A stretch of DNA of 64,000 bases, from NCBI RefSeq assembly GCF_055900595.2, contig NZ_CM148325.1; one strand, given 5' to 3'. Below the pieces are notes generated by a model. The model made no database searches, had not been told where the DNA came from, and saw only the letters and a list, made by a program, of their open reading frames with translations. This document shows, piece by piece, positions 5,168 through 28,216 of this stretch (positions are counted from its first letter, which is position 1; each line of letters starts with the position of its first letter). The translations under genes and the position numbers were made by a program.

Positions 5168-6004
<837 letters not shown>

Positions 6005-6155
6005 TTAATTTGCATAGACCGTTTTCAGAGTAACCAGCGCATCGCTACGCCGCCAGCCAAAAACGCTGATAATTAGAAATTAATGATAAACAGGGAGGGA
6101 TATCAGTGAAAGGCATGAGTCGATGAATGACTGCATGCCGATAACATGTGACAGG

Positions 6156-7076
6156 TTACGACGCCAGAGCCAGCACCTCAGCCACCCACTGCTGGAAACC
6201 TTTCACATCCAGATCCAGCGCCACCTGCACGTTTGCAGGTTTACTCAGGCAACCATCAATATCAACAACCGTAGTACCTGAGGTAAATTCGCCCTGCGTT
6301 TCCACCGCCACAAAACACGGCTTGAGAGTAAACAATTCCGGGTGTACCAGCCAGGCGATAGCGCAAAGATCGTGCATACGCAGTCCACTTTGCATACTGC
6401 CGCTACGGTAGTGGCTAAACAGGGCGTGTAGCATTTTTCCGGTGCGATTCAACTCCGGCAAAGTAGCGAGATAGTCAGGGGTTAACATTGCCTGATTGGT
6501 GACATCCAGACCACACATGACGATTTCGATGCCGCTACGGAAGACACAGGCTGCCGCTTCTGGATCGGCAGCGATATTAAACTCGGCGTTTGGCGTACAG
6601 TTGCCGCGTCCGGCAGAACCGCCCATGATCACCAGACGGCGAATATGCGGTTTGCATTCCGGGCATTGTGAAAGTAACAGCGCAATATTGGTTAACGGGC
6701 CGATGGCTACCAGCGTAACAGGCTCAGGCGCACGCAGCAGGGCATCACGAATCGCCAGAAATGCGGGTTTGTCCAGTGGGCTTCTGTTGTGCTCGACAAA
6801 GTCGTAGCCAGCCATTCCCGATTCACCGTGTACAGATGCCGCATTACGCGGTGCGCGTACCAGCGGCACGGAGGCTCCCTGGGCAAGCGGAATCTCCGCA
6901 TTCCAGAAATGCAGCAGTTGCAGGGCGTTGCGGGTAGTTTTCTCTACCGAGACATTACCCGCGACGGTGGTCATCAGTTGCAGGTCAAGTTCCGGGGCAA
7001 AAATCGCGGCGGCAATGGCGACGGCATCGTCAATGCCTGGGTCAGTATCAAGGAAGATGGGTATAAGTTTTGTCAT
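6156..7076 (-). CDS. rihC: Non-specific ribonucleoside hydrolase
   Basis: 306-aa ORF with [18 protein letters not shown] nucleoside hydrolase motif, recognised as RihC; N-terminus differs slightly from remembered K-12 sequence. Confidence 0.9.
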
Positions 7077-23967: not shown

Positions 23968-24507
23968 CTATAGCTGTTTATTCCAGAGATGCTTGAAAAT
24001 ATCTAATGTGGAGACAACATTGGCAGGCGACATTCGGTTTAATGAGGATAGAAAGGGATGAGACTCCAGGAAGTTGATAAAACGAGTCGCGCTTGCTAAC
24101 GTCGAATACCGCATTTCATTTGCTTTCTTGTTTCCTGTAAGGTTACAAACAGCCATTGAATAATCACGGGCGGAAAATGCACGCCAGACATTATTTCTCA
24201 CGCCACCACTCAAAAACAACCGCGGCGGCGTATCATAATGAGTCGTTTTCTCGCCGCGTTCTTTCACAAATGAAATATGGCACCGGCCTTGATGAATATG
24301 CTGTAAATTAGCCATTAGACAACCGCCTAATATAAAGCACTCGTGATCAAGGTAGTGTTGAATATTTATAGAATATGCTTCAGTCAGTACTCTAACCAGT
24401 TCAAAATGGCGATACGCCGGAAGAACAGGTTTCACCAGCATCCCCGGATCGTTTTGATGTAATATCGCCCGACCATAATCAATATCAAATAAAGTATCAC
24501 GTCGCAT
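23968..24507 (-). CDS. Hypothetical protein (179 aa), function unknown
   Basis: ORF with its own strong Shine-Dalgarno (AAGGAG 8 nt upstream of ATG); overlaps the 3' end of the upstream zinc-ribbon ORF by 76 nt in another frame; no recognisable motif. Confidence 0.5.
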   Translation of the reverse strand: MRRDTLFDIDYGRAILHQNDPGMLVKPVLPAYRHFELVRVLTEAYSINIQHYLDHECFILGGCLMANLQHIHQGRCHISFVKERGEKTTHYDTPPRLFLSGGVRNNVWRAFSARDYSMAVCNLTGNKKANEMRYSTLASATRFINFLESHPFLSSLNRMSPANVVSTLDIFKHLWNKQL

Positions 24508-24944
24508 AGTAAGTAACTCCTTGCGTTGTACGTGATGCGCCAGTGTACCAGAAGTAATAATTTACGGATATCAGCAAGTGAAGCGCCTTGCTCAATCATC
24601 AATGCTAAATGTGTTCTTCGCGGCGTTGTATTTACATGATCCAGAGTGATAAAAGTTCCGGAACAATGATGACAATACATTCTCCTCTGCCCCTGAGCTG
24701 AATAGCCATACTTTTTCAGAGATGTGCTTCCGCAAGCTGGACATTGTGAAACCAACCCTCGCCATGAATGATTAACACGATTACGATAAATATTAAGAGA
24801 TCGTTCAGATATCACAGGAAACAAGTAACCGCATTCTCGACATAAAATATTTTTGCCTTGTGCAATATAATCCTGGCTATTCAACAACCCCAGGTTTTTG
24901 CATCCTGGTGTTTTGCAACAATCAACATTTACGTTGGTAAACAT
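24432..24944 (-). CDS. Tandem zinc-ribbon plus putative HTH protein, IS1 InsA-like
   Basis: Four CxxC pairs (CCKTPGC, CRECG, CPACG, CHHCSG); the second ribbon (CPACGSTSLKKYGYSAQGQRRMYCHHCSGTF) resembles the IS1 InsA zinc finger; start set at MFTNVNVD, which has an AGGGAG Shine-Dalgarno (ORF track starts 12 codons earlier without one). Confidence 0.5.
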   Translation of the reverse strand: MFTNVNVDCCKTPGCKNLGLLNSQDYIAQGKNILCRECGYLFPVISERSLNIYRNRVNHSWRGLVSQCPACGSTSLKKYGYSAQGQRRMYCHHCSGTFITLDHVNTTPRRTHLALMIEQGASLADIRKLLLLVHWRITYNARSYLLCDVILYLILIMVGRYYIKTIRGCW

Positions 24945-24998
24945 ATTCACTCCCTGCGAATACCCGGATATTATCGTCATATGTCAAAGAAAAGAACC

Positions 24999-25023
24999 TG
25001 ATTCAATGTGTAACATTGAATCA
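24999..25023 (-). terminator. Perfect 11-bp inverted repeat hairpin downstream of the sulfatase gene (putative terminator or operator)
   Basis: tgattcaatgt-gta-acattgaatca; on the minus strand it is followed by a T-rich stretch (ttcttttcttt). Confidence 0.5.
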
Positions 25024-25073
25024 GGCGGGCATAGCCCTAAATGGCATACATTACATTTATTATGATTATCAGG

Positions 25074-26567
25074 TTAGCCCCAGGTCACTGCTTCTGGTTT
25101 ATCACCTCTGGCTTTCATTAATGAATCATTATCAATATCGGCTTTATACTTTAAGAAATTACCATACATTTGTTTTTCAATGTCTGGATTTTTACCTATC
25201 TGATTAATGGTCTCAAAACGATCGGTTTTGAGGTTGTATAGGTACTTTGGCTTATTGTTACGATCGATGATCATTTTCCAGTCACCATCACGTATCGCCC
25301 ATTCGTCGGTTGGATCATCCTGGAATGGCATGTCAATTCCGAAGATTAATGGCTTTTCACGTTTTAGCGCCTTGTTCTCAAGGACAGGAACCAACGATTC
25401 GCCATCAAAAGTGCGGTCCGTCGGTAATTTGAAGTTCATCATTTTCGCCAGCGTAGGCATCCAGTCCAGACCATAAACGGGAGTATCTGAAACCATTCCC
25501 TTTGGAAGATGCTTTCCGTATTTAATAATCGCCGGAACACGGATGCCGCCTTCCCAAAGATTATCCTTGCGACCACGTAATCCATCCGTTTCCCCTGCCA
25601 AATTCAGCTCATACACTTTGCGCGCTTCACGCGTTACCGGACCGTTATCACTGGTAAAAATAACGATTGTGTTATCTTCTTCACCCATCGCTTTGATTTT
25701 ATCCAGCACTTTTCCAACCTGTGCATCCAGATAGCTGATGTTGGCATAATATTCCCCCACACCACGCCAGGGTTTATCCGCCCAGTCGCCATAAAATAAA
25801 TCAGGATGCTGTTTCTGATAGTCGCTCATATATTGTGAGTACATGTCGAGGTATTTTTTGGGCGAAGCCAGGGGACTGTGCACTTCGGTAAAAGCGACAT
25901 AAAGGAAGAAAGGCTTACTATCCTTTTTGTTATCCAACCAGTTAACGACTTCCGAACTGACATACTCACCACTCATTTTATCGGCACGAGGTGTGGGTTG
26001 CCCGTTACGCAACCAACCCGTCGGATACACCATGCCAAAACGGGGACGCTCCTTCGCATTATCCAGAGTAGCGTCGGTAACAAAACCCGCCGTATTAACC
26101 AGTGAGTAATCAAAGCCCATATCTTGTGCTTGTGGCTGATCGGTGCGATCGCCGCCTGCATTCAGATGCAGCTTACCCATCATTGCCGTGTCGTACCCTT
26201 GCGCTTTGAGTAGATTAGCAATCGTGAGTTCGTTACGCCCTAAGGCAACATCTTTGCCTGAAGGAATCCATGAGCGAATTCCAGTACGAAATGGCATCCG
26301 GCCGGTTAATAGCCCAGCGCGTGAAGGTGAACTTAAAGGGGCGGGGGCATAGTAGTCAGTAAATTTGACCCCTTCCTGGGCAAGCCTGTCGATATTAGGT
26401 GTTTTAACGATCTGATGACCATATGTTGCTAAATCGCCATAACCTAAATCATCCGCCATAATAATGACTAAATTAGGTTGTTTAGCCTCTGCGGCTAAGG
26501 CAGGACTAAAAGCATTCCCTGTGCAAACTGCAAGGCCGATCAAACTGGCCATTAACGTTTTCTGCAT
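25074..26567 (-). CDS. Periplasmic sulfatase, Ser-type
   Basis: 497-aa ORF with signal peptide and sulfatase signature region PLSSPSRAGLLTGR (Ser at the formylglycine position), LVIIMADDLGYGD metal-binding motif. Confidence 0.8.
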   Translation of the reverse strand: MQKTLMASLIGLAVCTGNAFSPALAAEAKQPNLVIIMADDLGYGDLATYGHQIVKTPNIDRLAQEGVKFTDYYAPAPLSSPSRAGLLTGRMPFRTGIRSWIPSGKDVALGRNELTIANLLKAQGYDTAMMGKLHLNAGGDRTDQPQAQDMGFDYSLVNTAGFVTDATLDNAKERPRFGMVYPTGWLRNGQPTPRADKMSGEYVSSEVVNWLDNKKDSKPFFLYVAFTEVHSPLASPKKYLDMYSQYMSDYQKQHPDLFYGDWADKPWRGVGEYYANISYLDAQVGKVLDKIKAMGEEDNTIVIFTSDNGPVTREARKVYELNLAGETDGLRGRKDNLWEGGIRVPAIIKYGKHLPKGMVSDTPVYGLDWMPTLAKMMNFKLPTDRTFDGESLVPVLENKALKREKPLIFGIDMPFQDDPTDEWAIRDGDWKMIIDRNNKPKYLYNLKTDRFETINQIGKNPDIEKQMYGNFLKYKADIDNDSLMKARGDKPEAVTWG

Positions 26568-26587: not shown

Positions 26588-27349
26588 TTAGAAATCATAA
26601 CCAAGCATATAAATCATTTGATCGCCAAAGCCATCGTAGCCCAGCTTATTATCGAAATAACGCCACGTCACACTGGCTTTCCAGCGAGGATAGAACTTCC
26701 AGACAATAGTTAAACCGCCATTTAATCCGTTCCGGCCAAATTGCTGCTCCGTGTAAGCATCGTTCCTGTCCAGTTCTATTTCATTCCAGTTAGATAAAAC
26801 AAATTTTTCGTCAAATAACATAAATGGCAATACTGCTGTCCAGCCAACAACATAACCATTCCAACCATTCGTTTGACCATATTTAGCTGATACGTAGTCA
26901 CCAGATTGATTATGTAATCCAATATACGGTTTAAAAAAGCCCCACTCGCCGTTCCAGCCGAGATAACCGAATCCATAAAACATGTCCAGATCGTCACCCC
27001 ATGAGTTATCCCATTGGCCATAAATTTTGCCAAAGAATGTCATATCAGAGTCAAAGAGTCTGACATGCGTCATTGCTGAAACCGTATGATTTCTCCCTGC
27101 TACAGCATGATTGAGTACATTACTTTCATAAAATGAGTAAAATTCTGCTTCTTTAAAATTTACCCCAAAATCCGCAGTCACTTTCCATACTTCACCACGG
27201 TGAGTGTTTACAAATCCACTATTCCAGTCTGCATAACCCGCATTTATTGAACCAAAGGTTCCTTTATATTCTAATGAAGAATATGCAGGAAAATGATAGA
27301 TAGCTGTTATCAGGGTACACGCAATAAGAAGTCGTCTTTTGGCAGACAT
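26588..27349 (-). CDS. Outer-membrane channel, Tsx/OmpK family-like
   Basis: 253-aa ORF with signal peptide, aromatic-rich beta-strand pattern and C-terminal ...GYDF ending as in Tsx (GYNF). Confidence 0.7.
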   Translation of the reverse strand: MSAKRRLLIACTLITAIYHFPAYSSLEYKGTFGSINAGYADWNSGFVNTHRGEVWKVTADFGVNFKEAEFYSFYESNVLNHAVAGRNHTVSAMTHVRLFDSDMTFFGKIYGQWDNSWGDDLDMFYGFGYLGWNGEWGFFKPYIGLHNQSGDYVSAKYGQTNGWNGYVVGWTAVLPFMLFDEKFVLSNWNEIELDRNDAYTEQQFGRNGLNGGLTIVWKFYPRWKASVTWRYFDNKLGYDGFGDQMIYMLGYDF

Positions 27350-27903
27350 ATATTATGTTCTCCATTCATTGTTTTTATGATTCCATAGGAATTAATACAC
27401 CAGATAATTCATTTTGATTAAGAACGACTCAGAAAGTATATTTAAAGGTGAATGGCAAAGCGTGATGGAGATCGCAGATTACTTTTACCCCCGGGTGTGG
27501 AGGTATCGTGTTTCAAAAAGTGTGTCGATTTTAAATATCACTCATTGATTTATAAACATTTTTCCTCACAAAAAGAAAATTCAATTCTGTACAAGAATAT
27601 TTTGTATCTTCTATTACTTTCTCCAGTAATAACTCACCATTCAGGCATAACTTAAACCTCTTGTTCATAATCTCAACTTTTGTAAATGAAAACGCACATA
27701 AGAGTTAAAATAAACAATGTACTAAAGATTAATTACGCAAAAATGCGAGGCGTCTTCAGGATTAGAATCGATAAAACAGAATGGGTTAAAGAGAGCGATA
27801 TAATAGCGGCGGGTGCTTGAGGCTGTCTGTCTCAGGCATTAGCTGAACGGCAGATAGAGAAAAGCCCCGAGTGATATTTTACCATCAACCCGAGGCCCCC
27901 TAT

Positions 27904-28113
27904 ATGCAGAACACATGTAGAGTGCCTCTTACTGACCGTAAGGTCAAGGAGAAGAGAGCAATGAAGCAGCATAAGGCGATGATTGTCGCCCTGATCGTCA
28001 TCTGTATCACCGCCGTAGTGGCGGCGCTGGTAACGAGAAAAGACCTCTGTGAGGTTCACATCCGAACTGGCCAGACGGAGGTTGCTGTTTTCACGGCTTA
28101 CGAATCCGAGTAA
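27904..28113 (+). CDS. mokC: MokC, overlapping regulatory reading frame of the hok/sok-type locus
   Basis: 69-codon frame MQNTCRVPLTDRKVKEKRA... that reads in frame into hokC, as in the K-12 mokC/hokC arrangement. Confidence 0.65.
   Translation: MQNTCRVPLTDRKVKEKRAMKQHKAMIVALIVICITAVVAALVTRKDLCEVHIRTGQTEVAVFTAYESE
27961..28113 (+). CDS. hokC: Type I toxin HokC (Gef), small membrane toxin
   Basis: 50-aa frame MKQHKAMIVALIVICITAVVAALVTRKDLCEVHIRTGQTEVAVFTAYESE recognised as Hok-family toxin. Confidence 0.85.
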   Translation: MKQHKAMIVALIVICITAVVAALVTRKDLCEVHIRTGQTEVAVFTAYESE

Positions 28114-28216
28114 GAGCAACGGCGGGGAGTGATCCCCGCCACTTTACAGGTGCTCGCATATCTTCAACGCACCCTATTTTTACCCAAGCCTGCCCACAGG
28201 CAGGCTTTTGGGGAGG

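Follow-up and report, generated by a model that had tools for sequence, protein, structure and literature searches.

A stretch of 64,000 nt from RefSeq assembly GCF_055900595.2 (contig NZ_CM148325.1), referred to below as the window, contains two overlapping minus-strand open reading frames (ORFs), ORF-A and ORF-B, which lie 5' of nhaA on the same strand and downstream of genes for a sulfatase and a Tsx-like porin. An initial annotation had described them at this position as an overlapping gene pair, or an unrecognised two-gene system, with similarity to InsA of the insertion sequence (IS) IS1. With coordinates counted along the window and ORFs taken from a program-made ORF list, both frames are found where that annotation had put them, with an overlap of 76 nt (24432-24507), and an AAGGAG sequence does stand 9 nt upstream of the ORF-B ATG. 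Comparison of the locus with other E. coli genomes and with Salmonella revealed an intact single gene, and a 268-bp deletion could be mapped in the window. The two ORFs are the remains of one 414-codon gene broken by this deletion, that is, a pseudogene, and we hold this conclusion with high confidence.

The comparison set consisted of 5,426 complete E. coli genomes searched by megablast, among which 1,274 contain the island and the closest shares 98.3% identity with the window over 20 kb. Island-bearing genomes annotate a single coding sequence (CDS) where the window shows two ORFs; this CDS encodes 414 aa in AR_0077 (WP_022645156.1) and a divergent 419-aa allele in strain S3. Both ORFs are collinear with the 414-aa CDS, and the proposed gene pair does not hold. 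In pairwise blastn, window positions 23700-24549 correspond to 6001-6850 of the E. coli locus L001 with 99.2% identity, and positions 24550-25100 to L001 7119-7669 with 97.3% identity, while the 268 bp of L001 6851-7118 have no counterpart in the window. The missing segment covers nt 396-663 of the gene, or codons 132-221 of the intact allele, and the reading frame shifts because 268 equals 3x89+1; no microhomology was found at the junction. When translated, the 5' remnant shows four changes in 131 residues relative to the AR_0077 protein, and the 3' remnant is identical to AR_0077 residues 222-414. The C-terminus of ORF-A reads ...IRKLLLL VHWRITYNARSYLL...GCW before its stop, and the intact protein instead reads ...IRKLLLLNSTGLNRE... 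at this point. ORF-B begins at the internal Met237 codon of the intact gene (ATG at 24507), and the AAGGAG in front of it, taken in the initial annotation for the ribosome-binding site (RBS) of a separate gene, is coding sequence of the intact gene within QRKELLT. A blunt 268-bp deletion has thus removed an internal block and shifted the frame, leaving behind ORF-A together with ORF-B, the latter an accidental ORF from Met237. Since the protein of the 3' remnant is identical to AR_0077 and that of the 5' remnant only four residues off, the lesion seems to be recent, and the locus is best regarded as a recent pseudogene. Positions of the remnants, the encoded motifs and the surrounding genes are collected in Table 1.

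Table 1. Features at the broken gene and around it (window coordinates)
Feature	Position	Strand	Basis
nhaR	21585-22508	-	ORF list
nhaA	22550-23716	-	ORF list
ORF-B, 179 aa	23968-24507	-	ORF list
3' remnant, codons 222-414 and stop	23968-24549	-	blastn, translation
ORF-A, 170 aa from ATG at 24944 (182 aa from upstream ATG at 24980)	24432-24944	-	ORF list
ORF-A out-of-frame tail, 39 non-native codons and stop	24432-24549	-	3' remnant read in wrong frame
Deletion junction, blunt	24549/24550	.	blastn and gene-coordinate mapping
5' remnant, native-frame codons 1-131 plus 2 nt (first part of ORF-A)	24550-24944	-	blastn, translation
InsA-like helix-turn-helix, first two helices, aa 108-130	24555-24623	-	AlphaFold2, hhalign
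Zinc ribbon 2, C68xxC71 ... C91xxC94, IS1 InsA-like	24663-24743	-	NF050000, hhalign
Zinc ribbon 1, C10-x4-C15 ... C35-x2-C38	24831-24917	-	motif search
Spacer between sulfatase gene and broken gene, with conserved hairpin/terminator and native RBS GGGAG	24945-25073	-	
Sulfatase gene, 497 aa, Ser-type S-S-P-S-R motif; upstream cassette partner	25074-26567	-	ORF list, RefSeq orthologues
Tsx/OmpK-family porin gene, 253 aa; first cassette gene	26588-27349	-	ORF list and orthologues

The N-terminal half of the protein is where the sequence likeness to IS1 resides. The initial annotation had counted four CxxC pairs in ORF-A; four cysteine knuckles are indeed present, but three of them are CxxC (CREC, CPAC and CHHC) and one is Cx4C (CKTPGC). 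In a 40-member family alignment (A1), C35 and C38 of the first ribbon are invariant and C10 and C15 are conserved in at least 90% of members, and in the second ribbon C68, C91 and C94 are invariant and C71 is conserved in at least 90%. The NCBIfam zinc-ribbon model NF050000 (IS1_IS1595_Zn) matched residues 68-99 with 35.6 bits in ORF-A and 31.8 bits in the intact protein, above its cutoff of 28. When an InsAB' comparison sequence was built from the window's own IS1 (17623-18320), hhalign aligned family residues 65-145 with InsA 5-88 at a probability of 96.6% (E 5e-10), and nothing was aligned with InsAB' outside these residues. The proposed resemblance of the second ribbon and the following helix-turn-helix to InsA is thus borne out. 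The similarity to complete transposases is of another order: the IS1 transposase model NF033558 (cutoff 100 bits) was matched along the first 87 of its 199 positions only, with 27-28.7 bits, and a forced hhalign of the C-terminal domain with IS1 InsB was not significant (probability 0.5%). Searches with profile models, which the annotation had recommended, gave a zinc-ribbon match above its cutoff but an IS1 full-length match far under cutoff, and Pfam returned nothing at E <= 0.001 for ORF-A, ORF-B or the intact protein, including no match to Radical_SAM or SPASM. None of ten distant relatives reached a full-length IS family model of NCBIfam, the PADLOC models of anti-phage defence gave 0 families at E <= 0.1, and PHROGs gave a weak transposase zinc-ribbon match only. 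A sequence profile search of the PDB returned matches to C2H2 zinc fingers only, which were driven by composition and were discarded.

An AlphaFold2 model of the intact protein was built on the 40-sequence family alignment (predicted local distance difference test 90.8, predicted template modelling score 0.91). It consists of the two zinc ribbons, with the strands of the first at residues 26-43, three helices, a beta-beta-beta-alpha-beta-alpha-beta core, an inserted beta-sheet and terminal helices, and its C-terminal domain is predicted to adopt an RNase H fold of the transposase type. Foldseek against the PDB gave low-TM matches to Argonaute/PIWI proteins, which have the RNase H fold in common with the model and were not otherwise informative. 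The positions of the DDE residues were assigned by the order of secondary structure elements in the model, not by residue-level superposition, and on this assignment the 40 members share no conserved Asp or Glu at the strand 1 position, which is T/S166, or at P262, which follows strand 4. E291 is the sole position that is acidic in all 40 members; two other residues, R238 and H269, do not vary at all, while N199, Y211, Y246, W343 and N411 are almost as constant. The DDE triad thus appears to have been lost in the intact family, as far as the model allows its positions to be placed.

The helices of the helix-turn-helix lie at residues 108-119, 123-130 and 134-153 of the model, and the third, whose counterpart in the alignment is the C-terminal helix of InsA, is presumably the recognition helix. 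The deleted block holds this third helix and strands 161-198, the first three of the RNase H-like domain. Neither fragment should fold or work: ORF-A is predicted to be non-functional because the presumed DNA-recognition helix is gone, and ORF-B because half of the central sheet of the fold is gone. One may ask whether ORF-A nevertheless yields a shortened InsA-like protein that binds DNA and has kept some regulatory activity or gained a new one, as its native RBS, both of its zinc ribbons and two of its helices are kept, and IS1 InsA is a DNA-binding repressor that is functional on its own. We regard this as very unlikely, given that the third helix is replaced by 39 unrelated residues, and that the allele is confined to its lineage and shows no sign of selection.

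The history of the parent gene bears on what exactly has decayed here. Proteins of 414-438 aa that are homologous over the full length are encoded in E. albertii, Salmonella, Klebsiella, Citrobacter, Kluyvera and Scandinavium, with one of 404 aa in Buttiauxella, and an exhaustive HMMER search retrieved further full-length relatives with 24-33% identity; the family ranges over Enterobacterales, Vibrionales and Alteromonadales-like bacteria. Among the matches listed for a 161-nt probe, the gene stands at one place per genome. It occupies the same locus beside nhaA in E. coli, Salmonella and Klebsiella, and lies in the dnaJ-nhaA interval in E. coli and Klebsiella. When the two E. coli alleles are compared, the ratio of nonsynonymous to synonymous substitution rates (dN/dS) is 0.09 at a dS of about 1. 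In the search for terminal inverted repeats and target-site duplications, which the initial annotation had proposed, only a perfect 13-nt inverted repeat flanking the locus (23895-23907 and 25061-25073) was found, at what is a fixed locus; it was rejected as an IS end, being imperfect in other alleles and having its left arm in the sulfatase-anSME spacer that is conserved with Klebsiella and Salmonella. Because the gene is single-copy, syntenic, vertically inherited, under purifying selection and without supporting terminal repeats, the parent is probably a domesticated, non-mobile transposase rather than an IS.

The initial annotation had considered a decayed or domesticated transposase module, which comes close to the truth, except that the parent is a syntenic host gene and not a mobile IS. 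It had also reasoned that homology of both ORFs to a single transposase with an inactivating frameshift would point to an ordinary IS remnant; one gene with an inactivating frameshift is essentially what was found, but its parent is not an IS. An element of the IS1 family that landed beside nhaA and decayed there would readily explain the InsA-like N-terminus, the transposase fold, the perfect 13-nt repeat and the name 'IS1 family transposase' which homologues carry in databases, where AlphaFold DB neighbours are mostly labelled IS1-family. Such an origin is nevertheless highly improbable, as a mobile remnant would not be expected to keep one copy per genome and the same locus in three genera, always as the last gene of the same cassette, with the low dN/dS given above; the scores far below the curated IS1 cutoff and the lack of a conserved carboxylate at the expected positions of two of the three DDE residues speak against it as well, as does the imperfection of the repeat in other alleles.

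Several further observations concern the same gene. The two E. coli alleles, L001 6269-7513 (about 226 genomes) and L002 6252-7511 (about 1,050 genomes), differ at 15% of residues, a divergence far above that of the typical E. coli core, which points to old allelic lineages or to a transfer from a different Escherichia. Shortened versions are recorded in AlphaFold DB for S. Typhi (327 aa), Paratyphi C (247 aa) and Dublin (375 aa), under the accessions Q8Z9N7, C0Q4H7 and A0A8X6EQK0, and many fragments of the gene occur in E. coli (protein fragments P0050, P0051, P0062 and P0064). The gene may have been disrupted repeatedly, especially in host-restricted lineages. Enterobacteria also seem to possess, at another place in the genome, a second paralogue of the fold family with about 20% identity (A0A444R321 of E. 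coli, W1DT68 of K. pneumoniae, A0A7W3HEW9 of Enterobacter and A0A659QLJ6 of Salmonella). A search of the literature on domesticated transposase regulators and on this locus found no account of the family.

The deletion is known here from assembled sequence, and the question arises whether it is an artefact of sequencing or assembly while the real genome carries an intact gene. A 50-nt probe across the junction had 0 matches in the 5,426 complete E. coli genomes, and among the matches listed for the 161-nt probe all fell in two pieces 268 bp apart; the lesion is unique against this set, as an artefact would be. However, a clean loss of 268 bp in non-repetitive coding DNA is atypical of assembly error, and the sole direct repeat found, a 13-nt pair, lies inside the deleted segment and does not bracket the deletion. 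Two further contigs, which were assembled independently, moreover encode the exact frameshifted ORF-A product, a finding that speaks against an artefact of assembly, and the window shows other decay in the form of an IS1 in its fimbrial operon and fragmented usher frames. An artefact is scarcely credible in view of these points. A genuine pair of genes or a module with a programmed frameshift, as in IS1 insA/insB, whose products would both be expressed and function, separately or fused by slippage in the overlap, is what the overlapping ORFs, the AAGGAG before ORF-B and the InsA-like ORF-A had suggested, but its probability is close to nil. Intact homologues are all encoded by one uninterrupted ORF (404-438 aa), the break falls exactly at the 268-bp deletion, and the arrangement occurs in none of the complete genomes. 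The gene contains neither an A6C motif nor another slippery run (no homopolymer of at least 7); the initial annotation had likewise seen no A6C-type motif and had not taken the pair for an IS1-style frameshift. Both the AAGGAG and the ATG of ORF-B belong to codons of the intact gene, and a fused product would still be without residues 132-221.

The pseudogene is the downstream end of a larger unit. In Salmonella and Klebsiella, the intact gene is the last in a cassette of Tsx-like porin, sulfatase and radical-SAM-SPASM (anSME) genes beside nhaA, and it starts 24-28 nt past the anSME stop codon. The four genes also stand together at two further sites in the chromosome, one in Scandinavium and one on contig L011, which gives three sites in all, and at the locus L019 a convergent sulfatase-anSME pair flanks the homologue. 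The sulfatase of the window has the same length as its Salmonella and Klebsiella orthologues (497 aa), on which the Pfam Sulfatase domain was found, and the porin has the length of its Salmonella orthologue (253 aa). An identity of the gene itself as anSME was considered and rejected, as Pfam gives no Radical_SAM or SPASM match in it, and Salmonella, Klebsiella and Scandinavium have anSME as a gene of its own further upstream.

Ser-type sulfatases with the SSPSR motif need anSME, and E. coli is without the anSME gene, which in those three genera separates the sulfatase gene from the last gene of the cassette. In the 129-nt spacer of E. coli, the sequence that elsewhere separates the sulfatase and anSME genes is fused directly to the final ~20 nt in front of the ATG of the gene, as seen when window 24945-25073 is compared with L003 (6675-6800 and 7960-8012) and L006 (6663-6815 and 7960-8012); from this fusion we infer that the loss of anSME in E. 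coli is an older event. The dnaJ-nhaA interval thereby presents a series of losses, with anSME gone in E. coli, the last gene broken in the window and the cassette absent from about three quarters of E. coli genomes. After the sulfatase stop codon there is a hairpin with a T-run (24996-25026, minus strand) which is conserved in E. coli, Klebsiella and Salmonella. Changes in it fall on both stem arms, it was scored as an intrinsic terminator in a terminator scan, and it resembles a terminator or attenuator internal to the unit, placed between the sulfatase gene and the genes that follow. Upstream of the porin gene there is a CRP-like site, TGCGATCTCCATCACG (27461-27476, minus strand), and similar sites were found 5' of the porin gene in Salmonella, in Klebsiella, on contig L011 and in Scandinavium, where the site is a perfect TGTGA-N6-TCACA.

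In marine gammaproteobacteria, homologues of the gene keep different company. A scan of species-representative genomes gave 16 loci (L023-L038) from Aliagarivorans, Agarivorans, Motilimonas, Celerinatantimonas, Gynuella, Psychromonas and Alginatibacterium, with the homologue at about position 7001 in most of them, and in all 16 it is divergent from a nucleoside-catabolism (deo) operon; the same context was considered for L013, L014, L016 and L018. The divergent operons draw their genes from TAL, nupC, add, deoC, deoA, deoB and deoD; nupC, deoC, deoB and deoD occur together in 10 of the 16, and the others contain at least deoD or deoB. Homologues on metagenomic contigs lie beside PNP, deo or nupC genes (four contigs) or beside a 5'-nucleotidase gene (two contigs). 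In most of the shared spacers there is an XapX-like small ORF as well as a CRP-like site. The element TTACC...AT(A/C)TGTTGA recurs 5' of the start codon, and TGTTG was found 15-90 nt upstream in 8 of 14 loci compared with 1.3 expected from shuffles. The porin promoter and the deo-type spacers share CRP-like sites and the recurrent TGTTG-containing element; the search gave no operator that convincingly fits both groups.

The placement of the gene beside or divergent to catabolic operons suggests a local regulator, and its domain composition is compatible with one. We tentatively propose, at somewhat less than even confidence, that the intact protein is a DNA-binding local regulator of transcription. 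Its zinc-ribbon and helix-turn-helix module would keep the binding of DNA, and the dead RNase H-like domain would serve as an oligomerisation module or as a sensor, which may sense a ligand. In enterobacteria the target would be the adjacent porin-sulfatase(-anSME) genes, while distant relatives would control the divergently transcribed nucleoside-catabolism operons. By extension, the family could, with similar reserve, be an undescribed class of transcription factors that came from an IS1-like DDE transposase, with the dead RNase H-like domain as sensor, and that controls nucleoside scavenging (deo/nupC/PNP/5'-nucleotidase) and, in enterobacteria, the cassette of Tsx porin, Ser-type sulfatase and anSME. 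The initial annotation had offered a regulator of the sulfatase/porin genes as one possibility; from the genomic context this is plausible for the intact gene, but it cannot apply to the broken copy.

Several points weigh against the account as given. The role as regulator is proposed from domain composition and neighbourhood. H269, H286, H290 and E291 may form a non-canonical active site. As to the lesion, which is seen in assembled sequence, a misassembly is improbable but conceivable, the fragments may be expressed, and a truncated protein may be made from ORF-A, as it retains its native RBS and both zinc ribbons.

What the window itself holds is ordinary gene decay, in a family that is already annotated in RefSeq, and the pseudogene reading likely corrects a mis-annotation, with one pseudogene in the place of two "hypothetical proteins". 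The lead lies in the parent, a conserved and uncharacterised transposase-derived family which is labelled "IS1 family transposase" in databases and behaves as a host gene. With its consistent neighbourhood, a domesticated DDE transposase acting as a local regulator is directly testable in Salmonella or Klebsiella. Elsewhere in the window, IS1 is present in full (17623-18320, with insA, insB and the A6C site) inside a fimbrial operon, whose chaperone and usher frames are split into several ORFs (18322-20574) in a further case of gene decay. A 490-aa ORF near rpsT (15257-16729, plus strand) matches genes annotated as type III effector EspX1, and the interval from the porin gene to dnaJ (27350-28216, plus strand) holds a mokC/hokC toxin ORF (…MKQHKAMIVALIVICITAVVAALVTRKDLCEVHIRTGQTEVAVFTAYESE).

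Compared with known systems, the family resembles IS1 InsA/InsAB' in the order of a C4 zinc ribbon followed by a helix-turn-helix, and in the RNase H-like fold at the C-terminus. It differs from IS1 in having one more zinc ribbon at the N-terminus and a length greater by about 180 residues, in being a single ORF with no A6C frameshift, and in a C-terminal domain without detectable sequence similarity to InsB; on the model-order assignment it has no conserved carboxylates at the first two DDE positions, and it is single-copy and syntenic, without terminal repeats. Weak matches to the four-cysteine models NF048018 and NF033544 recall the zinc-binding IS256/IS1249 variants. However, sequence identity to the IS256/Mutator transposase ISCth4 (PDB 6xg8) is 7%, the curated full-length models of that group scored 18-35 bits against cutoffs of 150-300, and no mobility features were seen. 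In its genomic setting the family is reminiscent of DeoR/CytR of E. coli, given that 16 of 16 marine homologues stand head-to-head with deo operons with CRP-like sites in the spacer, and that the enterobacterial cassette begins with a Tsx-family porin gene with a CRP-like site in its promoter region. Unlike DeoR and CytR, which have the DeoR or LacI fold, it combines zinc ribbons with a transposase fold, and regulation by it is suggested by context. TnpB-derived TldR repressors are transposon proteins that were recruited as host transcription regulators, and the parallel with TldR is one of concept only: a nuclease or recombinase fold loses catalysis, the targeting of DNA is kept and the gene becomes fixed beside its targets. 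The present family, which we know from sequence and a structural model, would reach a comparable end from a DDE/RNase H transposase, with no guide RNA, and not from a RuvC-type RNA-guided nuclease.

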